Of a stretch of DNA of 64,000 bases, positions 10,515 through 52,427 are shown in pieces. Each line of letters begins with the position of its first letter. The stretch's first letter is position 1. The position numbers and the translations under genes were made by a program. Source of the DNA: a virus; the IMG/VR virus record IMGVR_UViG_3300022928_001147, positions 1 to 64,000 of that record; one strand, 5' to 3'. The notes below the pieces were generated by a model. That model did not search any database. It had not been told where the DNA came from and saw only the letters and a list, made by a program, of their open reading frames with translations.

Positions 10515-10818
10515 GAGTAAGAAACTTCCGCCGGCTGTTATCGATACTTGGCCCGAAATCTTTAATGAGATAGATGTTGATGTTGTGCCTATTGAATACT
10601 TGCACAGCATCAACGTTCGTTTTAAAGATGGAAAGACTTGGGAAATTGACATTAAAAAGACCCGAGAAAAACCAAATGTTGATGTAGAATCGGCATTAGA
10701 AGAACTGTTCGAACATTACGAAGACTCAATTGACAGTATCGACTTTAGATTAGATACTGAAAAAGTTAAGTTTGATATTAAAAAACGAACACATCAGTTC
10801 ATGAAGAAAAGGAAGTAA
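10507..10818 (+). CDS. Hypothetical protein
   Basis: 103 aa, overlapping GTG start. Confidence 0.7.
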   Translation: MPKSKKLPPAVIDTWPEIFNEIDVDVVPIEYLHSINVRFKDGKTWEIDIKKTREKPNVDVESALEELFEHYEDSIDSIDFRLDTEKVKFDIKKRTHQFMKKRK

Positions 10819-22156: not shown

Positions 22157-22818
22157 ATAATAATTCTTCGTTGTCCTATTTTGTCATAAGTGTTGCTAGT
22201 GTTAATTCCATCAGTGTGTAATGTGTGTGTGTCGTACAAGGGATATCCTATTCCTAACATTAACAGCAAATTGTATCTATTTAATTTATGTGCCTTAAGT
22301 ACCTTTTTAGGAAATGCGTCTTCCCAAAAACACTTACAAAAACCAGACTTTAATCCTAAACTATTTGCAGCTATTGCTATTGCCCCTGCAGATAATCCAA
22401 CTTCTAAGGATGTTAGCACTCTATACGAACCTTTAGATAATGCGTTTCCATGATCTCTATAAAATTTAGTACTACTATCTCTATCTTCTTCTCTCATAAA
22501 AAATAAAAATAGTATATTAGAGTTAGTTTGAGGATTTTGCATTCTTCCTTGTTTTATAGCACTGCTGAGACTCTTAGATATTTGAGAAAGTTCATCGTCA
22601 CTATTCCGTGCTGCGTTAGCAAATTGTTGTATAACATCTCTATCTTTAATACATACAATATCAAAACTATTCAAGTTTTGTTTGGTAGGTGTATTATAAC
22701 CAACATCTATGAGCCAATTAATAGTTTCAAGATCTATTTCTTTAGAGAGGTCCCAATTGCGTTGACAACGCTGACTACTATTTACAGCAGATAAAAACTC
22801 ATCCTGATCTAAACTCAT
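22153..22818 (-). CDS. Nitroreductase-family flavoprotein
   Basis: R.QRNWD...I, PTKQN, G.....IAIAANSLGL.SGFC, LGIGY. Confidence 0.8.
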   Translation of the reverse strand: MSLDQDEFLSAVNSSQRCQRNWDLSKEIDLETINWLIDVGYNTPTKQNLNSFDIVCIKDRDVIQQFANAARNSDDELSQISKSLSSAIKQGRMQNPQTNSNILFLFFMREEDRDSSTKFYRDHGNALSKGSYRVLTSLEVGLSAGAIAIAANSLGLKSGFCKCFWEDAFPKKVLKAHKLNRYNLLLMLGIGYPLYDTHTLHTDGINTSNTYDKIGQRRIII

Positions 22819-22828
22819 ATACTATCTC

Positions 22829-23593
22829 CTATTGTGTTTTACAATTAACCATTTTTAAATATATTTCCGCAAATGTAGCATGTGCAGATTTTCCGGGATG
22901 TAATAAGTCCCTTGCAGTTGCGTCGTTTACTACTGTTTTTTCTGTCTCTGTATCATTAAGATCTAGAACATACAATGGAATATTATTACTCTGACATAAA
23001 AATTTAATAGCATCTAAATTTCTAAGTTTATTTATATATGCTTCTTCTCTAGTAAAGAATCCAGATATAATATCTCTATGAGAAAAAACGCTGCTATTAG
23101 CTTTAACTTGAGACCATTGTTTACAGTAATAAAGTTCTCGCCTATCACTAAGGGGAAGCAAAAGGAACACTCTTTTTATATTTGCAAAGTTAATAAATCC
23201 TTTTAATACTCTATAACAAGTTTCGGGGCCGGCGCCTGGCACACCTAAGTTATAAAGTTTATAATCATTTAATTTTTTATTAACCAATGTCGGCCATATA
23301 TCTTTATAATTAACTTCTTCGCCTAATGTATAACTACAGCCTATGTATGCATTACATTCATCACCTTTAACAAAATCTTTATTTGATCTATATCCAAAGT
23401 TATTAAGTTTGTATGTTATACTATCTTCTTGCCAGTCTTTCATCTCGTTAGGTCTAGAAAGTTTGTTTTCATTAAACAGCTCGCGCTGATTTTTAAATAA
23501 AAAGTTAACTTCTTTTTTATAAAATACAGAAGAAACTATTGTATTTTGTCTTAATAAATCGTAGTCAAATGTATGTTCGTTAGGTAATATCAT
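22829..23593 (-). CDS. SGNH/GDSL-hydrolase-like protein
   Basis: NNFGYRS, GCSYT.G, NLGVPGAG, D..HPG. Confidence 0.7.
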   Translation of the reverse strand: MILPNEHTFDYDLLRQNTIVSSVFYKKEVNFLFKNQRELFNENKLSRPNEMKDWQEDSITYKLNNFGYRSNKDFVKGDECNAYIGCSYTLGEEVNYKDIWPTLVNKKLNDYKLYNLGVPGAGPETCYRVLKGFINFANIKRVFLLLPLSDRRELYYCKQWSQVKANSSVFSHRDIISGFFTREEAYINKLRNLDAIKFLCQSNNIPLYVLDLNDTETEKTVVNDATARDLLHPGKSAHATFAEIYLKMVNCKTQ

Positions 23594-24654
23594 TTTATTT
23601 CCTGCAAATGCGGTATTAGTTCTTTTAATTGTTGATTTCGCATATTATCTAATTCATAAGTGTATTTGTAGAATTTATCTAATAGCAAAGGATCAAATTT
23701 AGTTTGTATTATCTTTGACAATCTACTATTTTTCATAATTTCTAGTACATAGTCTTTGGCAGATTCTGATAATATATTTATTGCTAGAAAACTAGGTCGG
23801 ACAACTAAATTTGTACTCCAGGTGCAGTTGTGTTCATTAGCAAACTCTGTTAATTTATAATACTGGTGTATGTTATAATTTTGCAAAGTAGTGTGTAATA
23901 CAATTTTATTACTAATATGTTTTTTAAAAATGTTTAAATTTTCTACAAAGGTTTCCCAACTAGAGTTTCTTATGTAAGTGTATACTTCTTCAATTCCGTC
24001 AAAACTTAGCACAAGATTAAATTCTTTAAATTTACTAACTTTATTGATCCAACGGGGTATGCGAGTGCCGTTACTTACTACTTCTATTGAAATTTTATTA
24101 GCGTTGGGTAATTCAAGTAATTGCTCTATAAAATATTCTGTGCGAGGCATTATAAAAGGCTCGCCTCCTTTTAATTCTATAAAAAATTCTTTATTGCTAG
24201 CACGAATAAAAGATAATATTTTTTCTATATCTTCTTTTGATAATTCATGCACTGCGGTTCTTGCTGTTTGAAAATGTATACCTTTAGCTGCTAGTATCTT
24301 TGCTTCAGGTATCCAGCTGGTACTGTTTCCAGGTGTACACATTCTACAATTTAGATTGCAGTGATTACCGCAGTTAATATCTAACCTAAATTGATTAGAA
24401 GTTATCCATTCGTCATAACTGTCTCGGCGACTAGTACCGTTAGTTTCTTCGTGTGTTTTGCATAAAGAACAATTAGAATGCCACTGTGTTTGCATAGTAG
24501 TTATAATATCTTTATGTTGTGCTAACTCAAACACATCTTCTAGTCTTTCTAGCTCGCTCACATGAATTAGTTTGTCTGCACTTTGACAACAGATACGAAC
24601 AAACCCTTGCGGGTCTATTTGTATATTTTGTGTAAGTGCTTTACATGATATCAT
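23590..24654 (-). CDS. Radical SAM enzyme, N-terminal twitch domain (subfamily A)
   Basis: N-terminal C...CC...CxxC; CNLNCRMC; KGGEP. Confidence 0.9.
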   Translation of the reverse strand: MISCKALTQNIQIDPQGFVRICCQSADKLIHVSELERLEDVFELAQHKDIITTMQTQWHSNCSLCKTHEETNGTSRRDSYDEWITSNQFRLDINCGNHCNLNCRMCTPGNSTSWIPEAKILAAKGIHFQTARTAVHELSKEDIEKILSFIRASNKEFFIELKGGEPFIMPRTEYFIEQLLELPNANKISIEVVSNGTRIPRWINKVSKFKEFNLVLSFDGIEEVYTYIRNSSWETFVENLNIFKKHISNKIVLHTTLQNYNIHQYYKLTEFANEHNCTWSTNLVVRPSFLAINILSESAKDYVLEIMKNSRLSKIIQTKFDPLLLDKFYKYTYELDNMRNQQLKELIPHLQEIK

Positions 24655-25817
24655 TGTTTAAATATAGGAAATGTTGCAATTAAATTTTCATTGCGTGATT
24701 TGTCTAATGCAGTGTGATGCTGCCAAAACTTATCCCATAACTCCTTAGTGTATTCATCTTGTTTTACAAATGCTAGTATACTACTGATGCAACTGTAGTC
24801 ATACTTATCTAACTTATTAACAACTTTATTTTTTAAATCTGTTGGAAGTACACTTGCACTTAGATGTTCTGGATAGCGAACAAATGTAATTTCAGTTTCA
24901 ATGCCCATACTATCAAACCATTCTAATGCTTCAGGTATGTAATATACATTAGTGTTTTGTACTGTAATTTTAGCAACAATACGAATGTTAGGATATTTTT
25001 TAAGTTGTAATATATTGTCTTGTATTTGCTGCCATTTACTACCGCAGCGAATATAATCGTTTTGTTCCTTGTTCCCGTCAAGACTTACTGCAAGTTTTAC
25101 TGCTTTAAATTTACTCCAGTAATCTAATACGTTATATTTTTTAAATTTTAACATGCTTAAATTAGTAGCATAACTTAAAAATATTTCGTCTGCTCTGTCA
25201 ATTACTTTATCTAGAACCATATAATGTTTTTCGTCAAATAACGGCTCGCCACCTGCGAAATTTAATTCTAACACTTCAGTTAGATCAAGCCCTTCTATAA
25301 ATGCATCTTCATAGCCTAAATAAGGTTTTTTAGTAAGACCGAGATTGACTATATGTTCTTGCCAGTCTATAGGTTGCAAGTCACTAATCTTGTCCCATTC
25401 TTTAAACCAACTGGTACTATCATGAACGCTGCACATACGGCAAGCAAAGTTGCACAAGTTGCTTAGTTTAAGTTCAAGCCATTTTACTCCTGTTGACAAA
25501 CTGCCGTCTGGCGACATTATAGAAACTGCATGCTCATATTCGTCGAGCATTTTCTTACTTCGTTTGTTAAGATATTTTTGTCTTAAACTATCTACCCCTG
25601 CATCTTCGTCTTTATAACATACTTCACAATGCTTATTTCTGATGCCGTTAACCATATCGAGCCGTACTTGTTTTATAGTATCACAATTCCAAGCCTCTGT
25701 TAATGACATAGAGTTAGTATTTCCGATTCTAGGAAGACTACGACAACACAGTTTTATACTGCCGTCAGTCTTAGTACTTTGATGTACAAACGGTGCAGGA
25801 CAGATAGTTTTACTCAT
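24651..25817 (-). CDS. Radical SAM enzyme, N-terminal twitch domain (subfamily A)
   Basis: CPAPF..LCC..CEVC; CNFACRMC; AGGEP. Confidence 0.9.
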   Translation of the reverse strand: MSKTICPAPFVHQSTKTDGSIKLCCRSLPRIGNTNSMSLTEAWNCDTIKQVRLDMVNGIRNKHCEVCYKDEDAGVDSLRQKYLNKRSKKMLDEYEHAVSIMSPDGSLSTGVKWLELKLSNLCNFACRMCSVHDSTSWFKEWDKISDLQPIDWQEHIVNLGLTKKPYLGYEDAFIEGLDLTEVLELNFAGGEPLFDEKHYMVLDKVIDRADEIFLSYATNLSMLKFKKYNVLDYWSKFKAVKLAVSLDGNKEQNDYIRCGSKWQQIQDNILQLKKYPNIRIVAKITVQNTNVYYIPEALEWFDSMGIETEITFVRYPEHLSASVLPTDLKNKVVNKLDKYDYSCISSILAFVKQDEYTKELWDKFWQHHTALDKSRNENLIATFPIFKQ

Positions 25818-26410
25818 GTGTTCTCCATATACAATTGCTTGTTTTTAGGACGCAAAGGATCATTCTCGTTCCATCTATCACTTACTCGTAATTTAAATGT
25901 TATTCCATAAGTTTTAGCTAATGCTTGTGCTGCTTCTATTTGATGTTCATTAAAACTAAAAGGTATAAATTGCCAAACAATATCTTTGCCTAATATTGCA
26001 CCTAATTTCATTGCTGCCATACTGCTATCAAAGTCTATATTTTTTCTATACATATGTGCAGTATTTTTCAGGCCATCTACGCCAAATACAACTTTACCAT
26101 GTGTATAACTATTATAAAATTCTTTCCACCAGTCTAATTTTTTACCACTTCCATTAGTTGCCATAATAAAAAATACATTTTGTGTGTCAAAGAATTTTAT
26201 TATATCAATCAACTTTGGATGATATATCGGATCTCCTAGATTGCCGCTTAACAATACTTTTTTATAATTACCAGACTGAATAACTGTTTTGATAACATCA
26301 ACAGGTAAATCAGTTATTTGTATATTGCCTTTAAGATCTGTGCGCGGACACTTAGGACATTCTAACAAACATCTACGTGTTAATTCAAAATGCACTTTTT
26401 CACTATACAT
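25814..26410 (-). CDS. Radical SAM core lacking its C-terminal SPASM domain (subfamily C)
   Basis: HFELTRRCLLECPKC, GNLGDP, TNGS, F.VDGL..T..YR, WQFI.F..NEHQI. Confidence 0.85.
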   Translation of the reverse strand: MYSEKVHFELTRRCLLECPKCPRTDLKGNIQITDLPVDVIKTVIQSGNYKKVLLSGNLGDPIYHPKLIDIIKFFDTQNVFFIMATNGSGKKLDWWKEFYNSYTHGKVVFGVDGLKNTAHMYRKNIDFDSSMAAMKLGAILGKDIVWQFIPFSFNEHQIEAAQALAKTYGITFKLRVSDRWNENDPLRPKNKQLYMENT

Positions 26411-26699
26411 CTTCGACAACCTTTGTTAACGGATTCTTTAAATTATCTGCAATTGCTCCGCAATGTGTTTTACAAGTAGGTCCAGCAGATTCAGGATTAG
26501 CTATTAAATTGTCTATCCAGTTTTTTAAATGTACATTAACAATTTCATCATAGGGCGTTTTTGTTATATCAAATTTATCACATTCAAACTGTTGATATTC
26601 GTTACGCTCAGGCCTATCACTGAGAAAACAACAAGGACGCACATGCCCTGTTGCAGTAATAAACTGATCTTTCCCTCTTGCACATTTAGGATAAATCAT
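26403..26699 (-). CDS. Stand-alone SPASM/twitch Fe-S domain protein
   Basis: PKC....FITA.G.V.PCCF...C...CG matches the C-terminal domain of 40113..41177. Confidence 0.8.
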   Translation of the reverse strand: MIYPKCARGKDQFITATGHVRPCCFLSDRPERNEYQQFECDKFDITKTPYDEIVNVHLKNWIDNLIANPESAGPTCKTHCGAIADNLKNPLTKVVEDV

Positions 26700-27322
26700 T
26701 GTTTCTCCAATATAAAAAACAAATTTTCAGGATATTCAGTAAGTTTGAAATTATAATTTTTAGCAAATTCTTTCACAGCAATTTCAAGTTCGGGCCAATC
26801 CTTGTTTTTATAGTCGTCGCCACATATAACTTTCGTATCTTTAAAATATTCTAAAACTTTTTTTGTGTGTTCGTAGGTGTGTTCCGAATCGAGATATATA
26901 GCATCATATGTCGAACAATACTTTTTATAAATGTACTGGTGTGTAGACATCGACGTAACATTAGATAACAATTTATATTTAGGATGATGCTCCATTACAA
27001 AATTCCAGACTTCTTTATGAGACATATTTTTTAACATATTAACTATGTTCGACCAGATATCCAAATTTTTGCCAAATTTGGGCATTCTATCAGAACGAAC
27101 AAAATCAGGAATTTCTGATGCATCAACATTAAAGGAATCTAACACGTCGTATGTGGTATCGTCAGGCAAAACGTCTAACCACGCCCAAGTACTCCTTCCA
27201 AAAAGCACACCAATTTCTAAAAACTTTGCATTTTTAGGTAGTAGTTTTGCAACTTCTGCGTATCGCTGATGCTGATATATACTTGTAAATCCAGGGACTT
27301 GTCTTGCTTGAATTATTTCCAT
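26696..27322 (-). CDS. Class I SAM-dependent methyltransferase (Methyltransf_24-like), copy 2
   Basis: FLEIGV..GRS, D.IYLD..HTYE, ICGDDY. Confidence 0.85.
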   Translation of the reverse strand: MEIIQARQVPGFTSIYQHQRYAEVAKLLPKNAKFLEIGVLFGRSTWAWLDVLPDDTTYDVLDSFNVDASEIPDFVRSDRMPKFGKNLDIWSNIVNMLKNMSHKEVWNFVMEHHPKYKLLSNVTSMSTHQYIYKKYCSTYDAIYLDSEHTYEHTKKVLEYFKDTKVICGDDYKNKDWPELEIAVKEFAKNYNFKLTEYPENLFFILEKQ

Positions 27323-27438
27323 TTAGTAGTCCTCACGTCACTATCAGCTCCGCCGCTTAAACGAATTCCTATTCCTTTATGCTGTGCAGCATCTAAAGGA
27401 ATATTAATAGTAGAATTATTATAACGATACACAGTCAT
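27313..27438 (-). pseudogene. Chimeric minigene: PP-loop ATPase N-terminus fused to a radical-SAM C-terminal tail
   Basis: MTVYRYNNSTINIPLDAAQHKGIGIRLSGGADS|DVRTTKWK*; compare IIVRLSGGFDS (31285 gene) and DVRATKWR* (28058 gene). Confidence 0.8.
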
Positions 27439-28067
27439 TGATTTTCCAATATAAAAAATAAATTTTTACGATGTTCAGTAAGTTTAAAATTATATTTTTT
27501 AGCAAATTCTTTTACAGCTTTTTCTACGCCTGGCCAATCTGGATTACCATAATCGTCCCCACATATAACTTTAGTATTTTTAAAGTGCTCTAGAGTTTGC
27601 ATTACACCGTCATAAGATTGATTAGCATCTATAAATATAGCATCGTAATTAACTCCGTATTCGTCTTGAATATACTGCTGAAGACGCATTGTCAATACAA
27701 ATTTAACTATATGAAACTTAGGATGATGTTGTAATACAAAATTCCAAACTTCTCTATGAGACATCGTTTTTAATAAATTAGCTATACCTTCCCAGCAATC
27801 TAAATGATTTCCAGGAGTTGACGGTTTTCTACCAGCATTTTTATTAAATTCTGGTATATCTTCTGGTCCAATATCAAATTTGTCCAATGCATCATAGTGT
27901 GCATCTCCAGGCAATGCATCTAACCACGCCCAAGAGCTCCTACCAAGGGAAACTCCTATTTCTAAAAATCTAGGTTTCTCAGGTAATAAGTCAACTACAT
28001 CTTTATATAATTTGTGTTGATACATGCTAGTAAACCCAGGCACATATCGTGCTAAAGTTATCTCCAT
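27435..28067 (-). CDS. Class I SAM-dependent methyltransferase, copy 1
   Basis: Clear paralog of 26696..27322 (VPGFTS.YQH, GRS.WAWLD.LP, TKVICGDDY, NLFFILE.Q). Confidence 0.85.
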   Translation of the reverse strand: MEITLARYVPGFTSMYQHKLYKDVVDLLPEKPRFLEIGVSLGRSSWAWLDALPGDAHYDALDKFDIGPEDIPEFNKNAGRKPSTPGNHLDCWEGIANLLKTMSHREVWNFVLQHHPKFHIVKFVLTMRLQQYIQDEYGVNYDAIFIDANQSYDGVMQTLEHFKNTKVICGDDYGNPDWPGVEKAVKEFAKKYNFKLTEHRKNLFFILENQ

Positions 28068-29101
28068 TTTGTTGCCCTTACATCATGGCTACAGAAACAA
28101 TGCTTGACTTTGCACACTGTGGGTTCTACAGTCCAATCAAAAGTTGTACAATTATCAGTTAAATAATTGCCAAACACTTTTCCCTGTCTACAACTAGCAT
28201 CGGCACTAACCATTCCATTAGAACCTATATAGAGAACATCTATACCTACATTACACTTCCAGCCAGTCCAAGAATTTTCACCCGATGCGGCCATTGCTTC
28301 AGGTATAGATTTAATATAATCTGTTTCATTATATCGAAATGTAATACCACTGCCCATACTTGTAGACTGTTTGCGTATAATAGTGTTGTCTTGGCGCAAC
28401 CATTCTAACTGTTCTTGAGTATAAGTCACCATCCTTAAATGACTTCCTATATCGTCACTTTTATAATTTTCTCTAATTGGTTTTTTAGCAAGTACAGCAA
28501 ACGTACCTTTTTCTTTTAGCAATTCGTATGTTTCAACAACATACTCCCATTTACTAGCAAGTGCAAGAACAAGAGCTCCTGTTTTAACACCTTTCGAATC
28601 TAATAGATTACACACTTCTAAACAATGATCTTTGTCTGCAAATTCAGGATGAAAGCTATATACGATATCAGAAAACATTCCGCCATACTGGTCCCACCAA
28701 CGCACTGACCTTGCTCCGTTGGTAACTAGTCTTACATAATTGTTATCGTACTTTTTAAGTTCTGTAACAAATTTCTCAATGTCTTTCCATACTGTAACTT
28801 CACCGCCTATAAGTTCCCATACTATAGAAGTCTTGTGTTCTTTGTATACTCGATTAATTTCAGCAACAATTTCTAGTGCCTTTTCTACAGGGGGCCAAGG
28901 ATTAGTAGCACCGTAGTGCTCAGGTGTACAATAGCTACATTTATAAGTGCAAGTATTTCCTAGCGCCCAATTAATACTAAGTGTATTTGACTTTCTGTTA
29001 TAACTTTTAATTACATCAACAGGAAGCTCGCCAGCAGCAACTCTTGTTCTAAAATCGTCACGCTGATCTCCCCACAATGTTATTAAGTTGTTATATTCCA
29101 T
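28058..29101 (-). CDS. Radical SAM enzyme, C-terminal twitch-like domain (subfamily B)
   Basis: WALGNTCTYKCSYC, GGE.T, SFHPE, W.GWKC..G...C...C....C.C. Confidence 0.9.
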   Translation of the reverse strand: MEYNNLITLWGDQRDDFRTRVAAGELPVDVIKSYNRKSNTLSINWALGNTCTYKCSYCTPEHYGATNPWPPVEKALEIVAEINRVYKEHKTSIVWELIGGEVTVWKDIEKFVTELKKYDNNYVRLVTNGARSVRWWDQYGGMFSDIVYSFHPEFADKDHCLEVCNLLDSKGVKTGALVLALASKWEYVVETYELLKEKGTFAVLAKKPIRENYKSDDIGSHLRMVTYTQEQLEWLRQDNTIIRKQSTSMGSGITFRYNETDYIKSIPEAMAASGENSWTGWKCNVGIDVLYIGSNGMVSADASCRQGKVFGNYLTDNCTTFDWTVEPTVCKVKHCFCSHDVRATKWR

Positions 29102-30500
29102 CAAAAATACCCTTCATTTCTGGAAAAGTTTCATAAAAACTATTTCCTCTATGTGCATCGTTGAGTTCTAAGAATTCTTTCATTTCAGGTAGTCGAACAC
29201 TCCAGTCCTCGCTTTCCATAAATTTTAACATGCCTTCTAAACGACTGATGCCATAACTTGCTGCGAGCCAATCGTCTTTAGTAACTTTGCCTTTATGCCA
29301 TTCAGGAATACCTTTTTCCCAGTTAGCTTCCCACCATGGATAAAATTCTTCATACTTTTTGCGACATGCTGCTTTAAATTCTTTAGGCAAGACTTTAACA
29401 TTAAGATGAGGTGGATGATAAACAAAGTGATAATTTACCGCACCTGCACCAAACGGCCACATGTTGATTTTCTTGAATCCTTCTTCTAACTTCCAACGAA
29501 TAAAATCAGGAATGTAATAGATGTTTAATGCTTGTACTGCACATGCAATTGTAATTTCAGTGTTTGACGGCGTTTGTGTGTCTAAAATGTGAAACACTTC
29601 TTTAGTTCGTTCCCATTTACTAGGATAGCGTATATAGTCATTCATTTCGTGTATACTGTCTACACTATAATGGAACCGCACAAGTTTAAACTCTTTCCAG
29701 AGATCAAACAAATCTTCACGCCATTCTACACCATTTGAGTTGTAGCGTAATTCAAGGTTTTTAGCATAGCCCATTTTAATAGCATGTTCAAGAATCTCAT
29801 AGTGTTCTTCAATAATAAGACTTTCGCCGCCAGCAAAATAAATTTGTTGCATGCTTGGCATCTGTTCATAGAACTGTTTCCAAAATGTAGGATTTTGTTT
29901 ATGCCAATTGTAACTACTACCATTGTAGCTGCCTTTGTCCTGCCATTGCATTGTTTCTTTTAGACTTGCATTTTCTACAGCAGGAAAGATTGCTTTATAA
30001 TCTTTGATCCATCCCGAGCTGTCGTGCGGGCTACACATAATACATGCTAATTGGCACTTAGTTCCGAATCGCAAATCAATATATGCAAGCTGGGGAGGAA
30101 CACTTCCGTCTTCTTTAGTATCAGCAATTAATTTATCAACATCAACACGCTGACTCCAATACTTAGTTTCCCACATACGCTTTGAATTATGTCCAGCAGC
30201 TTCTTCTTTGTAGCATTTTAAACAACTAGGCGGTTTTTCTCCTGCAAGCATTTGCTTACGCACGTTTTTCATATATGTGCTGTTCCAAGCAGTTTCAAAA
30301 TCGCTTACGTTTAAGTTGTTAGGTTTGCCGTCTTCTGTTTTAAGAATACCAACTTGGCCGCCGTGTTCTTTGTCATTAGTTGCACCTACACTGCTTGCAT
30401 TTGCAGTACAGCATACTCGCATACTACCATCTGGTCGAGTACTAAGATGCACCCACGGCAATAAACAAAATGTGTTAGAGGGTAATTTGTGATCAGACAT
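29091..30500 (-). CDS. Radical SAM enzyme, N-terminal twitch domain (subfamily A)
   Basis: FCLLPW..RVCC..CLKC; CQLACIMC; AGGE. Confidence 0.9.
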   Translation of the reverse strand: MSDHKLPSNTFCLLPWVHLSTRPDGSMRVCCTANASSVGATNDKEHGGQVGILKTEDGKPNNLNVSDFETAWNSTYMKNVRKQMLAGEKPPSCLKCYKEEAAGHNSKRMWETKYWSQRVDVDKLIADTKEDGSVPPQLAYIDLRFGTKCQLACIMCSPHDSSGWIKDYKAIFPAVENASLKETMQWQDKGSYNGSSYNWHKQNPTFWKQFYEQMPSMQQIYFAGGESLIIEEHYEILEHAIKMGYAKNLELRYNSNGVEWREDLFDLWKEFKLVRFHYSVDSIHEMNDYIRYPSKWERTKEVFHILDTQTPSNTEITIACAVQALNIYYIPDFIRWKLEEGFKKINMWPFGAGAVNYHFVYHPPHLNVKVLPKEFKAACRKKYEEFYPWWEANWEKGIPEWHKGKVTKDDWLAASYGISRLEGMLKFMESEDWSVRLPEMKEFLELNDAHRGNSFYETFPEMKGIFDGI

Positions 30501-30585
30501 ATTTTTTAAACCTTTTATTTAAATTTAGTAAGTTGGTTTTTCTAATGTTATCTACTGTATTGTAACATAATGGCGGTTTATTCAT
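30493..30585 (-). pseudogene. Collapsed radical-SAM minigene (30 aa)
   Basis: MNKPPLCY|NTVDNIRKTNLLNLNKRFKKYV* matches the first and last residues of 35871..37013 (MIQDKPLCY...NSLDAVRQTNLVDIDERFKDYV*). Confidence 0.8.
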
Positions 30586-31186
30586 TAATTCTCTCTTTGA
30601 TTTCTTGATAAAGGAGTCGCCCAAACTCTTTATGACCAGCTGGTCCTGGGTGGCTATTATCCAATGCTTTCGGATGCTCTCGACGTATTTTATTAATACT
30701 TGTTCTACACAATTGAACATCATTCCAATTAAAATCGTGTTTATACATCCCAGATCCAAAAGCATGAAAATTTAATATGTTTCGTTTAGTTAAAAAATAA
30801 TGAGCATAATTAAGTCTAGTGTACATGTCTACCTTCATATCATAAAAATCATGGACATTGCGGTAAAAAAATCTAGATGTTTTGTCGGTTTGCCAAGCAT
30901 TAATATGTTTTATACCATCTTCAGTTATAATACAATACCTGTCAAAATGAGACCATAATACAACTACCATGTCTTCATCTTGATAATTAAAATTTTGTAG
31001 GTTGTATAAAATTTCTTTATTACTTGATCCAGATACTGCACAATTAACAAGTTCTCTGTTAAGACGATTTGCAACTTCATTCGGCCATGCAAACTTGCTT
31101 GGCAGACTTCCATTATGGCCATTTTCCCAACAATCTTCTAAACCAGTGCCGTATGTTAAACTGCATCCAAATGTAATTAACCTCAT
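30578..31186 (-). CDS. SGNH/GDSL-hydrolase-like protein
   Basis: LITFGCSLT.G, N.AVSGSSN, D.SHPG..GH. Confidence 0.75.
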   Translation of the reverse strand: MRLITFGCSLTYGTGLEDCWENGHNGSLPSKFAWPNEVANRLNRELVNCAVSGSSNKEILYNLQNFNYQDEDMVVVLWSHFDRYCIITEDGIKHINAWQTDKTSRFFYRNVHDFYDMKVDMYTRLNYAHYFLTKRNILNFHAFGSGMYKHDFNWNDVQLCRTSINKIRREHPKALDNSHPGPAGHKEFGRLLYQEIKERINE

Positions 31187-31190
31187 AAAT

Positions 31191-31295
31191 TTACTCTTCA
31201 AATAATTCTTTATATTCGGACACTATGTCAAGTATAGTTTGATTTCTATTTTTGTCTTTCGATGGTAATTTTCTATCAGCTATATTATTTTTCAT
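31191..31295 (-). pseudogene. Collapsed radical-SAM minigene (34 aa)
   Basis: MKNNIADRKLPSK|DKNRNQTILDIVSEYKELFEE*; head resembles MSDHKLPSN (29091 gene), tail resembles DNLRNQNILDIVPEYKGLFNE (32027 gene). Confidence 0.75.
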
Positions 31296-32040
31296 AGTTT
31301 TTATTTGCCCATTCTCTTTCGTAACACCACCAACATATAGGAGATGTCTTACAAGTTGTTGTAAAATTATCTGTTGCTTCTCTAAGTCCTTCGCAGCTTC
31401 TTGTAATAGATAACATATCTTGCAAAATGCCAAATCGATCTGCTAAGGAAAATACTATTCTTTTATCAAAATTTCTAAAAGGTTCTATTTCATGACCAAA
31501 CTGTTTAGTGTTATGATACACTGACCTTGAATTAGCTATTGCTCCAATTATTAGAGGTACTTGTCTATTTTTTTCAGGATTATGTTTTTCTTCGCCTATA
31601 TGTACATCTGGATTTTTTGTTACTCCGTTATACGAAACAACATCAGTGTCTAAATTATAATCTTTAATAATTTTTAATAATAACTCATCCTGTGCGTTAC
31701 TATAAATTTTTCCAGTATCGTTATCTAACCACCAATTGTCAACGTCGAGTCGTTGTGTAGGTTTTACATCTAAATTAGGAAATTTGTCTTTGACATAATC
31801 TAATATAGTGTCAACTACAGGATACGGATTTGCTTTATCCATAGCTGGATCATTATTAGGATTGTTTATCTTTCTCACAGTTAAAGGATAAATCGACGGT
31901 GATAAGTTATTTTCGTTCAACAGAAATGCAATAGTGTATAACATTACTGCACTATCAAATCCGCCACTTAGCCGTACGATTATATTAGAACAATCAAGTT
32001 TAAAGGCCACCTTTCCATAAGCAGTTTTATAAAAATTCAT
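31285..32040 (-). CDS. QueC-like PP-loop ATPase
   Basis: IIVRLSGGFDSA PP-loop; PF...DK; TRSC...C....CWWC.ER putative Zn site. Confidence 0.75.
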   Translation of the reverse strand: MNFYKTAYGKVAFKLDCSNIIVRLSGGFDSAVMLYTIAFLLNENNLSPSIYPLTVRKINNPNNDPAMDKANPYPVVDTILDYVKDKFPNLDVKPTQRLDVDNWWLDNDTGKIYSNAQDELLLKIIKDYNLDTDVVSYNGVTKNPDVHIGEEKHNPEKNRQVPLIIGAIANSRSVYHNTKQFGHEIEPFRNFDKRIVFSLADRFGILQDMLSITRSCEGLREATDNFTTTCKTSPICWWCYEREWANKNYEK

Positions 32041-33334
32041 TAAATAATCCTTTATATTCTGGAACAATATCCAAAATATTTTGGTTTCTTAAATTGTCTA
32101 ATTTAACTGTGTAATCAATAAAGTTTGACAATTTGTCGCTTTCGTCTTTCCCTTGCATGTAGTTACTTATACTATCAAGTATCTTGCAAGCACGTTTATT
32201 GGTAGCATCGTCAAAATTATCAAATGTTGTCTTACATTTTTCATAATGTGCAACTATGTCATCTTTAATATCCTGAGGCAATACTCTTACACTGCTGTAC
32301 CAAGGCTTGTGACACATATGATGTGACATAATTTTAATATTCTTTCCTGCTCCTATGCGTTTGAATTCTTGTTTGACTATCCAGTTAATAAATTCTGGAA
32401 TGTGATATACGTTTAAGTTTGTAACAGTACACGCTATCCAAGCATCTACATTAGGAAGAGTATCAACTATTTTTAAATTCTTTTCTATTGCACTCCATTT
32501 AGCAGGGTAACGTTGGTATTCTAATACTTTCCCCATACCGTCGATGCTTGCACCAATTTTTATTCTTTTAAACTTTTCCCATAACACTAATACCTTAGTA
32601 GGAATGTTAGTTAAATTAGTATTGTATTCTATAGTTATGCGATGAGCATTATTACTATCAATACACTTTTGTAAAAACTCATAATGGCGTTCTATCATTA
32701 GAGGTTCGCCACCTGCCATGTAAACATGTTCAATGTTTTTTATGTTCGATTCAATATGTTCCCAGAAAGTTGTACTATAGTGCCAATCATACGCATCTGT
32801 AACCCATCTGCCATTCTCATTTTTCTCAAGTGTAACCTTGCCATGTGTGTCATCCCATTTATTACCGTACATGTTAACCCAGTCTTTATACCAAGTATGG
32901 CTATCTTCAGGGCCGCACATTCGACAAGCTAAATTACATAAATTTCCAAAGCGTAAATCGTAATACACTAACGGATTTTTATCAATATTAATTTCTCCGT
33001 CTACTGTTGTCGAATCAATAATTGAATCAATTGATGTATTCCATATATCATTTTCGTACATCCGTCTACTTCTTAGTCCGCTCTCTTCTTCTTGTTGACA
33101 GCGTGTACAATCGGGGTGCCATTTGCCTTCAAGCATTGTCTTGCGAACGTCTTTAATCAATGCTGCATTGCGGGCTTCGTCTAAAGAATCTGAACCTGCG
33201 TTATAAGGAACGCCATTGTCTTTCTTTAATGTACCACGGCCGGGTGTAGAGTTCATTTGACAGCAGACTCTTACTGTTCCGTTATTTTGTACTGCTTGAA
33301 AGTTCCAAGGAATAGGACAAAATGTTTTAGGCAT
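32027..33334 (-). CDS. Radical SAM enzyme, N-terminal twitch domain (subfamily A)
   Basis: FCPIPW..RVCC..CTRC; CNLACRMC; AGGEP. Confidence 0.9.
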   Translation of the reverse strand: MPKTFCPIPWNFQAVQNNGTVRVCCQMNSTPGRGTLKKDNGVPYNAGSDSLDEARNAALIKDVRKTMLEGKWHPDCTRCQQEEESGLRSRRMYENDIWNTSIDSIIDSTTVDGEINIDKNPLVYYDLRFGNLCNLACRMCGPEDSHTWYKDWVNMYGNKWDDTHGKVTLEKNENGRWVTDAYDWHYSTTFWEHIESNIKNIEHVYMAGGEPLMIERHYEFLQKCIDSNNAHRITIEYNTNLTNIPTKVLVLWEKFKRIKIGASIDGMGKVLEYQRYPAKWSAIEKNLKIVDTLPNVDAWIACTVTNLNVYHIPEFINWIVKQEFKRIGAGKNIKIMSHHMCHKPWYSSVRVLPQDIKDDIVAHYEKCKTTFDNFDDATNKRACKILDSISNYMQGKDESDKLSNFIDYTVKLDNLRNQNILDIVPEYKGLFNEFL

Positions 33335-34607
33335 TCCAATATTCCTTAAATTCAGGATAGTAATCTAATACATTTGTATTGTTATACGCATCTTGAACTT
33401 GCATATTGCGAATAAAAGAGTCCCAATCTTTATCATATAGGTCTTCTGCATTCATATAATTAATTAATTTTTTTCCTATCACAGGAATTCTACGCTGATA
33501 GTAGTCTATTAAAGAATGCTTTTGCGTATATTGCAGTGCAATTGTTTCTAAATTTTCAATAAACTCATTGTACTCTTGAGTAATTTGTTCTTTAAGTGCT
33601 TTAGGCAATATTCTCGGATTTAATGATGACGGATATTGCACTAAACTTGCATGTACTCTAACATTAAGTTGCATAAAGTATTTAAATACGTCAACAATTC
33701 TCGTCATATTTAATACACTGGTAGTACATGTTGCTTGCAAGAATACATTATCAAGTGTTTTGTTTATTTGTTTAATGTTTTCTTCAACTTTATCAATGTT
33801 TCCGTTAACTCGAATATACGGATATATGTCAGGTGTAGCATCAATACTAACTAACACTCCTACATTTTTAAATTTTTTCCATAACGGCAATACGTTATTA
33901 CCTTTATGTTCTAATGTCGATAAGTTGCTGTTGTAGTTTAATACAATATTTTCTGCATAGTCTTCTAAACCTTCTAAAAATTTATAATGTTTTTCATGAT
34001 ATAAAGGTTCGCCGCCTGTGATTAGAATTTCTTGTAAGTGAGGTGCTAATATTTCTATTTCATCAATAATGTCAGTATTCAATTTTACAGAAGGTTTATT
34101 AGAATCCTTAACTAATTCGGCCATTTCAGGAGACCTTGCTGCTGCTTTACTCCATAATGAACTGTATACTGGGCTGCAATGCCTACACATTAGATTGCAA
34201 GTATTATCAAACCGTATTTCAACACTTTTTAGTTGTTCAATTGAGTACGAAAAATCATCATTAATAGTACTTCTAACATAAGTTTCTAATTGCTTAGGCA
34301 CTACATCATTTTTTGATTCGTTAAATACAATTTGATCATTTTCAATTTTCCAAGATTGTAGGGTTTCCTGTCTTGTACTCATTACTCCGCTCGATTCTAA
34401 GTCCCAACAGCTTCTGCATCCTTCTGATTTAATACCCGAAAGTAATTCTTGTCTTAACTTTTTTGTTTCATCGTTATTGAAAATTTCAGTTAATGAAGAT
34501 GTTGTGCTGTTTCCAAGTGTAGTCTGGCCGCGCCAACATGCACACACTCTTCCTTCGTGTTTTAAATTTTGATGTACAAACGGCATTATACAAAACGTAT
34601 CACTCAT
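33327..34607 (-). CDS. Radical SAM enzyme, N-terminal twitch domain (subfamily A)
   Basis: FCIMPF..CAC..CRSC; CNLMCRHC; TGGEP. Confidence 0.9.
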   Translation of the reverse strand: MSDTFCIMPFVHQNLKHEGRVCACWRGQTTLGNSTTSSLTEIFNNDETKKLRQELLSGIKSEGCRSCWDLESSGVMSTRQETLQSWKIENDQIVFNESKNDVVPKQLETYVRSTINDDFSYSIEQLKSVEIRFDNTCNLMCRHCSPVYSSLWSKAAARSPEMAELVKDSNKPSVKLNTDIIDEIEILAPHLQEILITGGEPLYHEKHYKFLEGLEDYAENIVLNYNSNLSTLEHKGNNVLPLWKKFKNVGVLVSIDATPDIYPYIRVNGNIDKVEENIKQINKTLDNVFLQATCTTSVLNMTRIVDVFKYFMQLNVRVHASLVQYPSSLNPRILPKALKEQITQEYNEFIENLETIALQYTQKHSLIDYYQRRIPVIGKKLINYMNAEDLYDKDWDSFIRNMQVQDAYNNTNVLDYYPEFKEYWNA

Positions 34608-35878
34608 TTAATATTTCCTTTAATTTCATTGTACTTATATCCTAAATTTTTCTCTAAGTATTGATATAACTCAGGAATTTGTTTTTCTAAACTTTGAGAT
34701 CTTAATAAATCTACATCTTTGGTATATTTTATAAACACATCTGTTTCTTTATTTGAAGTACTACCATTTAAATATTGTATAATCTTGTTGTGATGTCTCC
34801 TAATAATCTTTTGTTCGTTGATAGGTCTATTGATACTATCTATATACGATTTAAACTTTTCAACTATTAAATGTTTAGCAGGTAATATATCTATCGCAAT
34901 GTAACTTGGTGAATATACCGTGTTCATAACAACTTTTCCCGGACCATCATTAATTGTAATTAATCCTTTATTTGAACGTTGATCTATCCAATATTCTAAT
35001 AACGTGGACATATTAAAAATATTATATGCGCAAAGTGTAGGTGTTAATATAACTGCAACATTATCATGATTACATTCAAAATCTAACCAACTATCAATGC
35101 TCGATTGTACATCTAGCCAATTTGAATTTTGTCTTACATAATCATTAACTTCACCAGTGCCGTCGATTGACATCCATATTTCTGCTTTTTTAAATTTAGC
35201 TAATGTAGACATTAATTTTTCTTTCGGAGACCAACTTGAGTTTGTAAAGATTTCAAGAGTAATTTGTTTATGGTGCCCGCCTTCTATTATAACATCTAAG
35301 AATTTTACAAAATCAGGGTGTAGCATAGGTTCGCCACCTGTAAATTTTATATGCACTGTGTTTTTAAAATCTTCAGGCTTCCAATTAAATCCTATATTAA
35401 ATCGTTGAGAATACAATTCTCTATCGGGATAGTGTTTTACTAATTCCTTATCATCTTCAAACCAAGATGTTGATAGTTGAGAATTGCAAGTACGGCATGC
35501 TAAATTACAATAATTACCAAATGTAACTTCAAGAAATTTTAATGAAATAGTGTCTTCGTTTACAGTAGAATCAACATTGTAATCATCATTATATCCTGTT
35601 CGCATACTTTGATTTGTAATTAAATCTTCTTTGTAGCATTTTGCACACCCTGACAATTTTTCTCCATTTAGCATAGCCTGTCGTAATTGTTCGAACGGCT
35701 GTGATGCTAAAATGTCGTCAACATTTTTAAAATCACTTAATTTTTTATTAGAAAAATCAATAAATTTATCTTCGCCTGTATCATGCATGAGAAATCGGCA
35801 ACACGGTTTAACTAATCCGTTTGGTTTTACTGAAAAATGCATCCACGGAAGTACACACAATGTATCCTTTTTAGACAT
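34604..35878 (-). CDS. Radical SAM enzyme, N-terminal twitch domain (subfamily A)
   Basis: LCVLPW..KPCC..CAKC; CNLACRTC; TGGEP. Confidence 0.9.
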   Translation of the reverse strand: MSKKDTLCVLPWMHFSVKPNGLVKPCCRFLMHDTGEDKFIDFSNKKLSDFKNVDDILASQPFEQLRQAMLNGEKLSGCAKCYKEDLITNQSMRTGYNDDYNVDSTVNEDTISLKFLEVTFGNYCNLACRTCNSQLSTSWFEDDKELVKHYPDRELYSQRFNIGFNWKPEDFKNTVHIKFTGGEPMLHPDFVKFLDVIIEGGHHKQITLEIFTNSSWSPKEKLMSTLAKFKKAEIWMSIDGTGEVNDYVRQNSNWLDVQSSIDSWLDFECNHDNVAVILTPTLCAYNIFNMSTLLEYWIDQRSNKGLITINDGPGKVVMNTVYSPSYIAIDILPAKHLIVEKFKSYIDSINRPINEQKIIRRHHNKIIQYLNGSTSNKETDVFIKYTKDVDLLRSQSLEKQIPELYQYLEKNLGYKYNEIKGNIK

Positions 35879-37013
35879 AATCTTTAAACCTCTCGTCGAT
35901 ATCTACTAAGTTAGTTTGGCGGACAGCATCTAAACTGTTATTAAATTCTTTAAATGCATTATACGCTTCCTCACTGTAGCTAACAGAATTAAGAAGCGAC
36001 ATAATATCATTTACATCATAATTATTATTATTTCCCCAAGCAGTTATATCAGCTTTTGCTTGCTCAAGATGTGCAGGAAGTACTGCACTTACTTCTGAAG
36101 TATAAGATTCACTTAGATCAAACATGGTACCAAAACTGTATCCGTTATCTTGTAATTCTTTAAACCAAGCCAACAAGTCAGTTATATGAAATATATTATA
36201 TGGCATTAATACAATGTTAAAACCGTAATGTTTTGCCATGTCCTTTTTAAATATTTCTTCAATAGTTTTCTTTGTTTTGCTCCAATTTGCATTTGTTCTA
36301 ACATATTCATAAGCTGCGCCAACAGCATCAATACTAAAGACTACATGGATGTCATCAAATTGTTCCATTATCTTTCTAAATTTAGAATTAAGATTTGTAC
36401 CATTAGTAGTAAAGCGCAATGATGGCAATTCAGTATAATTTTCTAAAATTGCCTCAAGAAATTCTACAACTAACGGATCAATAGTAGGTTCTCCACCTAA
36501 TATTTTAATCTGTTTTAATTGTATAGAACTTGTAAAATTTTTAAACTCGTCAAAGTTTTTTACAATTTTCTCCGGAGCAGTAAACCATTTTTGTAAATGA
36601 GCGTGTTGTTGAAATTCAGTAGTTATTTGACTACTTGCATTAGGCACACACATTCTGCATTTTAAGTTACAATGATTGCTGGGACGGTAGTCTAAAAACA
36701 TTGGGCCCTTTGTTGTATTACCAAATTCAATATCAAGCTCTACATCAACTTTGCTGAAATGTTTATCCCATATCCATGTTTCGTCTTTAAGATTTTTTTC
36801 TACCTTATTTTTACAAAACTTACACTTATCAGGCCACTGCTGTGCAAGAAGTTGTTTGCGCATATCTTGCATCTCGTCACTTACCCAGTACTCATCAGGA
36901 GTAAGTGTTTTATACTTTTCTTTTTTAGCTACACAACAGGGTGCATACTCATTATAGCCTGTCGAATACATTCCAATAAACGGAGCGTAGCATAGTGGCT
37001 TATCTTGGATCAT
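35871..37013 (-). CDS. Radical SAM enzyme, N-terminal twitch domain (subfamily A)
   Basis: LCYAPF..APCC..CKFC; CNLKCRMC; LGGEP. Confidence 0.9.
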   Translation of the reverse strand: MIQDKPLCYAPFIGMYSTGYNEYAPCCVAKKEKYKTLTPDEYWVSDEMQDMRKQLLAQQWPDKCKFCKNKVEKNLKDETWIWDKHFSKVDVELDIEFGNTTKGPMFLDYRPSNHCNLKCRMCVPNASSQITTEFQQHAHLQKWFTAPEKIVKNFDEFKNFTSSIQLKQIKILGGEPTIDPLVVEFLEAILENYTELPSLRFTTNGTNLNSKFRKIMEQFDDIHVVFSIDAVGAAYEYVRTNANWSKTKKTIEEIFKKDMAKHYGFNIVLMPYNIFHITDLLAWFKELQDNGYSFGTMFDLSESYTSEVSAVLPAHLEQAKADITAWGNNNNYDVNDIMSLLNSVSYSEEAYNAFKEFNNSLDAVRQTNLVDIDERFKDYV

Positions 37014-38192: not shown

Positions 38193-38221
38193 TATTTATA
38201 TGCGTAGTTTATATATAAGTA
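38193..38221. promoter_or_regulatory. Divergent late-type promoters, both probably leaderless
   Basis: Minus strand (T)ATAAATA 38199-38193, then 5 nt, then ATG 38187; plus strand ATAAGTA 38215-38221, then 5 nt, then ATG 38227. Confidence 0.65.
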
Positions 38222-41208: not shown

Positions 41209-41220
41209 ATAAATATTTAT
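41209..41220. promoter_or_regulatory. Palindromic bidirectional late-type promoter
   Basis: ATAAATATTTAT reads ATAAATA on both strands, between divergent genes. Confidence 0.65.
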
Positions 41221-41247
41221 AGAAAACAAGTAGGATTTCAATTCATT

Positions 41248-50890: not shown

Positions 50891-50915
50891 GGATATTCCT
50901 CTTTATTGTACTTAT

Positions 50916-52427
50916 TTATACTTTTAAAACACACTCAACTAACTTTTCAGATTCTTCTAAGTTAGATTCTAGAGCAACACCTACTAATGATCCTCCGTTA
51001 ATTGCTGTACTTGCACAACCGTTATTGTCAACATATACTGCCTGACCTTTTTTAACAGCGCCAATAACACGAACAGGTAAACGTCCTTTAAGACCGATAT
51101 ACTGGCCTTCTGCGTCACTGTTCATCATAACAGCAGGATCTGTAGAAACTACACCGATAGCAATATCGCCTACGTTTGCTGCTTCAACATCATGGTCATC
51201 ATGAGAGCATACTGTAACTACAGTACCGGGTACTAATTCTTCAGCAGTTGAATATTTTTCTGCTAAGTCAGCATATCGAGCACTTGTTGCTGTACCTTGG
51301 AAAAGTACCGCATTTAAGTTTCCGCTTGCATCACGCACAGCAACGCTATTAGCTGTTCCTGTACCGATTGTGTCAACTGCTCCAACTCGTACATTGCCGC
51401 CGACGATAAGTGCAGAAGCCTTTTCAGAAGTTCCGTATATATTAGTTGCATACACTGCACTAAATTTTTCAGTAGCACTACCTATTGCAACATTTTCTAC
51501 TGTAGTTCCTGTTAATATTCCTGGCTTAACTAAACCAGGTTCTAAAGTAATAATATTTTTGTTAGTGCCGCCAGTTTGTTTTGTTCTAAAACGAATTTCA
51601 TCGCCCTGTGCATTTTGGATAACTGCTTGGTTATCGTTTTCTACATATAGTTTAAGATCTAAACCTGCGCCAATTGCAATACCTGCATCAGTTTGAAAGT
51701 TAGTAATTTCTGTAAATACGCTAGGCTGTCCTGGAGTTGCAGTAACGTATTCACTTGCAGATTTTCCGTTTAATTTGTCAGCGTTAGACGCAGTACCATA
51801 AAAACGTGTCGAATCACTAGTAATTCCGCCCGTTGCGCTAAGAGTATTTTTAAGAGTTACACCTGATCGTATTACATCAAACCCTGATATAGCATTTTCA
51901 GCATCATTACTGTCAATTGTAAATTCACTTGGACTAATAACAAATATTACTTCATCATTAACTGTAGCAGCAATTATGCTTCTACTAACTGCAAGAGTGT
52001 CGCGAACTGTTCTACTTTGCATTTGTGTAATGCCAGAACCTGCGTCTTGTGGACCAATTAGTACAAAATCAGATCCGTTATATGAATATAACTGTTCATT
52101 AATTGTATCCCACCAAAAGTCGCCAGTAGCAAGACCTGCCGGAGCAGTAGCACTAATTTCTGCGCCACCAGTTGTGCGCCACTTTGTACCGTCATTAAAT
52201 TTTAATTTGCTGTTTGCACTATCAAACCAAATTTGACCTGTAATTGCCCTCGGAGGCTGATTAGCTCCTGCAAAGTTTTCAAGCAAGAATACAAAATTTT
52301 CGTTTTGTATCTCACCGTAGCCTGCATAATTTTTACCAACTAGTTTAAGATCAGTTGTTTGATCTAATGTACCATCTTGTACAATTGTTAACTGGTTAGT
52401 GTTGTATTTGTTAATTGTATACGCCAT
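50916..52427 (-). CDS. Tail-fibre-like protein with C-terminal intramolecular-chaperone-like domain
   Basis: Shared N-terminal module; C-terminal A.YADLAE.Y...GTVV...GVVS..P..MN...L.GR.PV.V.G.V.KG. Confidence 0.75.
   Translation of the reverse strand: MAYTINKYNTNQLTIVQDGTLDQTTDLKLVGKNYAGYGEIQNENFVFLLENFAGANQPPRAITGQIWFDSANSKLKFNDGTKWRTTGGAEISATAPAGLATGDFWWDTINEQLYSYNGSDFVLIGPQDAGSGITQMQSRTVRDTLAVSRSIIAATVNDEVIFVISPSEFTIDSNDAENAISGFDVIRSGVTLKNTLSATGGITSDSTRFYGTASNADKLNGKSASEYVTATPGQPSVFTEITNFQTDAGIAIGAGLDLKLYVENDNQAVIQNAQGDEIRFRTKQTGGTNKNIITLEPGLVKPGILTGTTVENVAIGSATEKFSAVYATNIYGTSEKASALIVGGNVRVGAVDTIGTGTANSVAVRDASGNLNAVLFQGTATSARYADLAEKYSTAEELVPGTVVTVCSHDDHDVEAANVGDIAIGVVSTDPAVMMNSDAEGQYIGLKGRLPVRVIGAVKKGQAVYVDNNGCASTAINGGSLVGVALESNLEESEKLVECVLKV

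Follow-up and report, generated by a model that had tools for sequence, protein, structure and literature searches.

Deletional decay of redundant genes is known in bacteria and phages, where an internal deletion leaves a gene remnant behind. For marine T4-like myophages, excerpts of one report describe host-recognition hypervariable islands with radical S-adenosylmethionine (SAM) cassettes (Zaragoza-Solas et al. 2020, PMC7029224), and excerpts of another describe a T4-like genome with 12 radical SAM genes (Nishimura et al. 2017, PMC5332604). In Bacillus subtilis, ComEB is, in excerpts of a preprint, a dispensable open reading frame (ORF) whose translation is required for the synthesis of ComEC (bioRxiv 10.1101/2020.12.30.424838). 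Here we describe a 30-codon ORF, which we designate stub I, on the minus strand of an 81.5-kb viral contig (IMG/VR record IMGVR_UViG_3300022928_001147), of which the first 64 kb constitute the window that was analysed. Very probably, a second 380-type N-terminal-twitch radical SAM gene once overlapped a 469-type gene from upstream, and stub I is its dead remnant. Our literature searches found nothing on natural in-frame relics retained for translational coupling, and nothing on point about the family model of these enzymes, NCBIfam NF033640 (N_Twi_rSAM).

Stub I joins the two ends of a 380-type gene

Stub I lies in a minus-strand radical SAM gene array that adjoins T4-like baseplate wedge and hub genes and tail-fibre genes. 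Its parts, its two neighbours and the intact 380-type paralog of the same island (lengths in amino acids, aa, and nucleotides, nt) are as follows:

30493-30585, minus strand: stub I, an ORF of 30 codons and a stop, in which the head of a 380-type N-terminal-twitch radical SAM gene is fused to its tail
30562-30585, minus strand: stub I head, 8 codons (MNKPPLCY), with the first twitch-domain Cys followed by Tyr
30496-30561, minus strand: stub I tail, 22 codons (NTVDNIRKTNLLNLNKRFKKYV), with the C-terminal signature of the 380-type
30578-30585, minus strand: start overlap ATGAATAA, shared by the stub I ATG and the TAA that ends the GDSL gene
30493-30500, minus strand: stop overlap ATGTCTGA, in which the stub I TGA overlaps the ATG of the 469-aa radical SAM gene
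30501-30520, minus strand: end of the stub I tail, with a weak Shine-Dalgarno (SD)-like AAAAGG and the A-rich leader of the 469-aa gene
30578-31201, minus strand: upstream neighbour, an SGNH/GDSL-like protein of 207 aa from TTG or 202 aa from the ATG at 31186
29091-30500, minus strand: downstream neighbour, the 469-aa N_Twi_rSAM gene (NF033640, 419.5 bits)
35871-37013, minus strand: resident intact 380-type paralog (380 aa), in the canonical 395->380->424 position

Read from 30585 to 30493, stub I encodes MNKPPLCYNTVDNIRKTNLLNLNKRFKKYV and a stop codon, and both of its 8-nt stop/start overlaps are intact and lie in one frame. The resident 380-aa paralog begins with MIQDKPLCY and ends with NSLDAVRQTNLVDIDERFKDYV and a stop, where TATGTCTAA overlaps the ATG of the following gene. 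The first-pass annotation, which held that stub I mirrors both termini of this paralog and tied the claim to a shuffle test, was right on this point. Without gaps and anchored at the end, the stub I tail matches the final 22 residues of the 380-aa paralog (11 of 22 identical, BLOSUM62 score 68). None of 5000 residue shuffles reached 68 (maximum 59), and the best non-self end-anchored score among 983 stop-preceded 30-mers from the six frames of the 81.5-kb genome was 15. A frame-agnostic blastx search of the 77-nt gap against 32 island proteins matched the 380-aa protein at residues 359-380 (E 7.8e-6). The NF033640 hidden Markov model (HMM) aligns its positions 380-410 of 411 to the end of stub I, with an E value of 4.4 that is not significant alone.

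By itself, the head of stub I is weak as a protein match (E 3.1). It carries C-Y at the first conserved Cys, as do 6 of 143 distinct family members, among them the 380-aa gene and its ortholog in locus L081. The head DNA, ATAAACC(GCC)ATTATGTTAC, equals that of the 380-type head of locus L162 (ATAAACC-ATTATGTTAY) apart from a 3-nt insertion; the window has a single occurrence of this pattern and 100 shuffles have none, which demonstrates uniqueness only, since the pattern was derived from stub I and L162 themselves. Homology to the family head and to the family tail is therefore present in order and in one frame, and reaches the family end, as in a derived relic. Because the head and the tail, two separate ends, both point to the 380-type, stub I is assigned to that subfamily.

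The shared YV-stop/MS overlap, also reported in the first pass, stands in part: the overlaps are real at both genes, and the YV-stop is largely forced by the sequence ATGTCTRA. The ATGTCTGA of the downstream gene imposes both the V and the stop, so the YV-stop is not independent evidence; in locus L056, an unrelated PP-loop gene likewise ends in RYV-stop on ATGTCTGA.

It is very improbable that stub I is a chance ORF or an assembly artefact. A chance ORF is excluded by the shuffles (0/5000) and by the genomic controls (68 versus 15). The window belongs to a metagenome-derived viral contig, which is in favour of an artefact, but the flanking proteins recur in identical form in JGI, ENA and Logan, on 16-23 contigs: the GDSL protein on 22, the 469-aa protein on 16, and the 380-aa protein and the proteins of two further stubs (II and III, described below) on 23. 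Neither the head nor the tail, moreover, is a repeat of the kind that could collapse in assembly.

Stub I has lost the enzyme core

A single Cys (C7) is present in stub I, and both the CxxxCxxC core and the complete N-terminal twitch cysteine set are absent. With the core and all twitch cysteines but one lost, stub I can make no enzyme. The NCBIfam scan of the 30-aa stub returned 0 families, and as a whole protein it stays under the NF033640 cut-off of 170 bits; full-length members of this twitch domain-containing radical SAM family include the 380-aa paralog (232.1 bits) and the 395-aa gene (297.5 bits). Pfam places a SPASM-like N-terminal domain in 4 of the 6 N-terminal-twitch paralogs scanned (469, 435, 426 and 424 aa, not 380 or 395 aa).

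A short ORF adjoining radical SAM genes could encode a functional micropeptide, for example a precursor peptide for the adjoining enzymes, and the paralogs weakly match maturase models for ribosomally synthesized and post-translationally modified peptides, all far under the cut-off. We consider this most unlikely: the sequence is explained as the head and tail of an enzyme, it has no family match and no exact entry in a collection of 15 billion proteins, and the 173 loci examined hold no homologous small ORF besides the stubs of this genome and one candidate.

Several other roles for the gap were ruled out. No terminator or strong promoter was found in it, and the Rfam scan gave 0 matches; together with the fold (z +0.9), these scans dispose of a promoter, a terminator, a structured RNA and a known RNA family. 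The T4 late promoter TATAAATA is absent from stub I. The GC content of the gap is 23.4% against 34% in the island genes, and an AT-driven drift of stub I (low GC; D/E of the resident paralog replaced by N/K) was considered and rejected, the tail being a normal L162-like tail; the tails of the 435- and 424-aa genes are equally AT-rich.

The parent of stub I diverged as a coding gene

A set of 215 full-length family ORFs from 161 loci and this genome supplied 145 distinct tails, which were ranked by their match to the stub I tail. The resident 380-aa gene gave the best end-anchored tail (68), and the L081 ortholog came top when the last 40 residues were compared locally (72 versus 68 for the resident gene). 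Further 380-type genes were then fetched by an alignment-based IMG/VR query (12 loci, 173 in total). Identity to the stub I tail is 14/22 for L081, 14/22 end-anchored (14/21 local) for L162, 13/22 for L163, 12/22 for L164 and 11/22 for the resident gene; in a second group of loci (L165-L171 and L173), it is 8-10 of 20-21. At the nucleotide level, the stub I tail shares 48-50 of 66 positions with L081, L162 and L163 and 43 of 66 with the resident gene, and the intact tails of L081, L162 and L163 share 50-51 of 66 among themselves.

The identities by codon position for the stub I tail are 11/20/12 and 15/18/15 of 22, and between intact orthologs 14/18/11. Conservation is thus highest at the second positions (18-20 of 22), a pattern that intact orthologs also show. 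This ortholog-like identity and second-position conservation indicate that the parent diverged before it ceased to code, and no extra decay is visible in the tail. As far as these sequences tell, the parent of stub I is a bona fide 380-type gene that diverged as a coding gene, and no recent duplicate of the resident copy. The resident paralog, which the first pass had favoured as the copied parent, does not fit that part, the tail being nearer to L081, L162 and L163.

A candidate derivation from the 424-type, in which the head of the 469-aa gene (MSDHKLPS) would have come along with the stub from a 424-type head, was rejected; 469-type heads often have D[KR]KLPS themselves.

Relatives of the locus show a mosaic island

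The 469-type gene has 246 relatives in IMG/VR, the best 80 at 83-90% identity. The gene upstream of the 469-type differs widely among these 80 loci, which indicates a mosaic island. Among the 13 loci with a 380-type gene, 8 (L165-L171 and L173) carry an intact 372-375-aa 380-type gene that overlaps the 469-type start by 20-29 nt. A full gene thus exists at the stub I position relative to the 469-type gene, and the objection anticipated in the first pass, that no relative has one here, falls away in that respect.

The JGI contig L081 is syntenic with the window at ~70-77% nucleotide identity. Its 435-homolog directly overlaps its 469-homolog, and the same direct joining of the two homologs is found in 4/4 syntenic relatives (L081, L162, L163 and L172). 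By blastn, window positions 32051-30474 have no counterpart in L081. The missing block is a module of this composition:

30474-32051, minus strand: module PP-loop (260 aa) / stub II / GDSL / stub I, which the four syntenic relatives lack where their 435- and 469-homologs meet

The GDSL-like protein of this module matches Pfam PF00657 at 23.4 bits, slightly below the cut-off. Elsewhere in the island, the window holds ~7 kb of extra genes at 22157-29104 (348-aa radical SAM, twin methyltransferases and more radical SAM genes), where L081 16421-17670 holds two unrelated genes instead; the island differs by multi-gene blocks.

We infer that stub I arose by deletion and not by some other join, with redundancy as the probable reason for the loss. 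In this scheme, the PP-loop/GDSL module and extra copies of the 469-, 435- and 380-types would have ended up between the 435 and 469 genes, after which the redundant radical SAM copies would have been deleted and the unique genes (PP-loop and GDSL) would have stayed. The second 380-type copy would have been dispensable because an intact paralog (35871-37013, NF033640 232 bits), presumably of equal function, is present elsewhere in the island. About 350 codons (~1.05 kb) would have been lost, with codon 8 fused to codon -22 in the same frame. The deletion would have been bounded by the GDSL stop on one side and by the 469 start and its initiation region on the other, the last ~20 nt holding the 469 start codon and a purine-rich, A-rich initiation region; the remaining 93 nt would be about what a deletion could not take without harm. 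Of the in-frame ~1-kb deletion with both junctions kept that was proposed in the first pass, the relic lacking ~350 codons and its intact overlaps are upheld, and a candidate in-situ event between GDSL and 469 has a parallel only in a distant locus (L154).

Some results weigh against this origin: (i) the 8 loci with an adjacent 380-type gene have more distant tails (8-10 of 20-21) that end 5 codons longer, so they show the arrangement and not the ancestor; (ii) no close relative with the order GDSL, full 380-type, 469 was found, and the sole locus with a GDSL gene and then a full N_Twi_rSAM gene is L154, in which PP-loop and GDSL genes precede a 420-aa gene that is not of the 380-type and in which the GDSL protein is 35% identical; (iii) except for the exact copy, the GDSL protein has no relative above 45% identity, and exact-word scans with it in IMG/VR and JGI metagenomes yielded no relative; (iv) the stub I protein, not called as a gene, has no exact entry among the 15 billion proteins; and (v) resolving microhomology at the junction would take the true parent; the orthologs read C-Y|A-P-F and K-E-Y-N|N-x-L-D, and a Tyr-Tyr (TAY) microhomology would need an extra difference of one codon.

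Further searches gave little. The degenerate back-translation of the stub I junction had 0 matches in IMG/VR, and exact words of the 380-aa protein had none there. A word-based search for longer proteins sharing stub I words returned 1 candidate and none that scored, which is weak evidence. Against cultured phages, megablast of 28000-33400 found no match, and tblastn of the 469-aa protein found only ~21% identity matches in 3 records.

A recombination scar would look similar. Here the head and the tail would never have belonged to one gene in this genome; two co-infecting phages would have recombined illegitimately between their 380-type genes, an event that placed the PP-loop/GDSL module before the 469 gene and brought the two ends together. 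The absence of the whole module in 4/4 syntenic relatives, the mosaic islands with their varying upstream neighbour of the 469-type among the 80 loci, the tail, which foreign 380-type orthologs match better than the resident gene does, and pelagimyophage islands that, in excerpts of PMC7029224, differ by added radical SAM cassettes are all in keeping with such an event. Yet the head and the tail both fit one L162-like subclade, so one parent gene suffices; no donor arrangement was found, and the outcome is the same as that of a deletion in the present data. We regard recombination as improbable and prefer the deletion of a second 380-type copy.

Further stubs occur in the same array

Stub I is accompanied in the array by the following features:

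31191-31295, minus strand: stub II, 34 codons, with a 469-type head (..DRKLPS) and a 435-type tail (RNQTILDIVSEYKELF)
27313-27438, minus strand: stub III, 41 codons, with a PP-loop head (SGGxDS) and DVRTTKWK, the tail of the 348-aa radical SAM type
26403-26699, minus strand: a 98-codon ORF, with a twitch/SPASM-like cysteine domain alone

The tail of stub II is 71% identical over 21 aa to the 435-aa gene. The gene order in L164 is 380-type, PP-loop, 469-type and 435-type, and stub II stands right after the PP-loop gene, which fits one deletion spanning two genes and suggests that stub II was made by a single deletion that removed two genes. Stub III, which is flanked by twin methyltransferase genes, has the head SGGADS (37% over 35 aa, E 0.07), and its DVRTTKWK matches the end of the 348-aa radical SAM protein at 6 of 8 residues (E 0.19); these similarities are weaker than those of stubs I and II. 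The 98-codon ORF overlaps the stop of a methyltransferase gene by ATGA and the following gene, a 201-aa radical SAM core, by ATGTATAG; it may be a split or truncated class-C radical SAM gene or a fourth relic.

In a frame-agnostic scan, all 4 of the gaps of at least 77 nt in the co-directional array resemble neighbouring enzyme families, and each is spanned by an ORF that runs from the upstream stop to, or to within 4 nt of, the next start. All three head-and-tail relics are in frame; with a chance of 1/3 for each, p is ~0.04, and ~0.012 when the 98-codon ORF is included as a fourth. This in-frame count of the array relics is suggestive, not compelling.

To gauge how common such stubs are, the family HMM was run over 40,995 short ORFs of the 161 loci and this genome and over 3,964 more of the 12 added loci. 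Orphan family tails were found in this genome (stubs I and II) and in one candidate of L062, and nowhere else; none is significant by E value alone, and the argument for them is their position at the end of the family HMM. The L062 candidate, the only stub-like one outside this genome among the 173 loci, is a 29-codon orphan N_Twi_rSAM tail at 10638-10725 on the plus strand, after a full-length radical SAM gene (positions 385-410 of 411, E 2.6).

The retained frame and the start of the 469-aa gene

The intact frame admits an explanation by selection, in which stub I is kept as a bridge for translation from the GDSL stop to the 469 start by termination-reinitiation, leaving the ORF chain of a long late operon unbroken. 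Downstream translation may stay coupled, as proposed in the first pass, and selection of the frame for such coupling is plausible but weakly supported; ribosomes may still read stub I and then pass to the 469 gene. As in a coupled ORF, both 8-nt overlaps are intact; translation of an out-of-frame join would end 2-3 codons on, leaving ~55-60 nt to the 469 ATG; and ORFs span all 4 gaps, three of them as head-and-tail relics. The 469-aa gene itself has a weak SD-like motif, the AAAAGG within stub I (duplex -3.4 kcal/mol versus a mean of -1.9 at random positions), and lacks the TAAGTA element seen at 49 of 80 homologs.

Against this, the RNA around the 469 start is unstructured (minimum free energy -8.7 kcal/mol, z +0.9), so coupling is not needed to open the start, and the region holds no terminator. 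No relative carries stub I among the loci examined, which precludes a conservation test, and the sample is small. The tail, furthermore, bears no sign of long residence as a stub, and a recent neutral deletion fits the same data. A selected bridge is a possibility, though on balance a doubtful one. Still less likely is the broader proposal that islands shed redundant cassettes only by in-frame collapses, by which a late operon of ~18 kb with more than 16 chained ORFs would have been spared polar loss and the stub would perhaps serve as an empty slot for a new cassette.

The TAAGTA element, often in the form TATAAGTA, lies 10-14 nt upstream of the 469-type ATG in 49 of 80 loci (L001-L080), whatever gene precedes; counted over distinct upstream sequences, it is present in 32 of 53, against a background of ~0.012 per 20 nt. 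It is absent from 30501-30525 of the window. TATAAGTA is one mismatch from TATAAATA, the T4 late promoter consensus. The TAAGTA element before 469-type genes may be a cassette-borne promoter or initiation element.

TATAAATA is depleted in the window (5 copies versus 12.75 expected). The copies at 38193-38200, 41214-41221 and 50913-50920, all on the minus strand, lie just upstream of the first gene in co-directional blocks, and one copy stands 5 nt before the 395-aa radical SAM gene, the first of the array. With TAAGTA absent and TATAAATA depleted, it is plausible that the 469-aa gene depends on upstream transcription and translation. The ends of radical SAM genes in the array (32027-34607 and others) have a conserved tail (E/Q)(Y/F)K(E/G), encoded by TTYAARGRN. 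These tail codons embed the SD-like AAGGA/GAGG of the next gene, such that the protein tail and the initiation signal are one sequence.

Comparison with known systems

With respect to NF033640, the ends of stub I are homologous to the first residues of the family and to its C-terminal D-x2-R...F-K-x-Y signature. Stub I differs from its members in having no model match, no CxxxCxxC and 1 twitch Cys, and is a relic, not a member protein.

The locus resembles the islands of marine myophages, as excerpts of the reports describe them, in its radical SAM-rich variable island beside tail-fibre and baseplate genes and in relatives that differ by gain or loss of cassettes. It differs in that stubs marking lost cassettes are not described in those excerpts of PMC7029224 and PMC5332604, and in that no cultured phage has a close 469-type gene. 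In the radical SAM-rich host-recognition island of an abundant uncultured marine myovirus, stub I would mark the loss of a cassette as a dated and readable scar. Together, stubs I-III would show how such an island contracts: redundant paralogs are removed, unique genes (PP-loop and GDSL) are kept, and the breakpoints are limited by the overlapping neighbours.

In ComEB/ComEC, as in stub I, an upstream ORF has a perhaps irrelevant product; by analogy, the translation of stub I and its embedded weak ribosome-binding site could serve the next gene. ComEB is a full gene, whereas stub I is a 30-codon fossil known from sequence only. If frame retention was indeed selected, it would provide a simple rule for gene loss in long translationally chained operons.

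Stub I can also be set beside deletion remnants. Like them, it is a head-and-tail stub of a recognisable family that has lost its interior, while a paralog elsewhere is intact and relatives have full-length counterparts. It is distinguished by its exact frame, by its two intact 8-nt overlaps and by the presence of three or four such stubs in a single phage operon. Stub I is an ordinary, well-documented kind of gene decay, in an unusually legible form.

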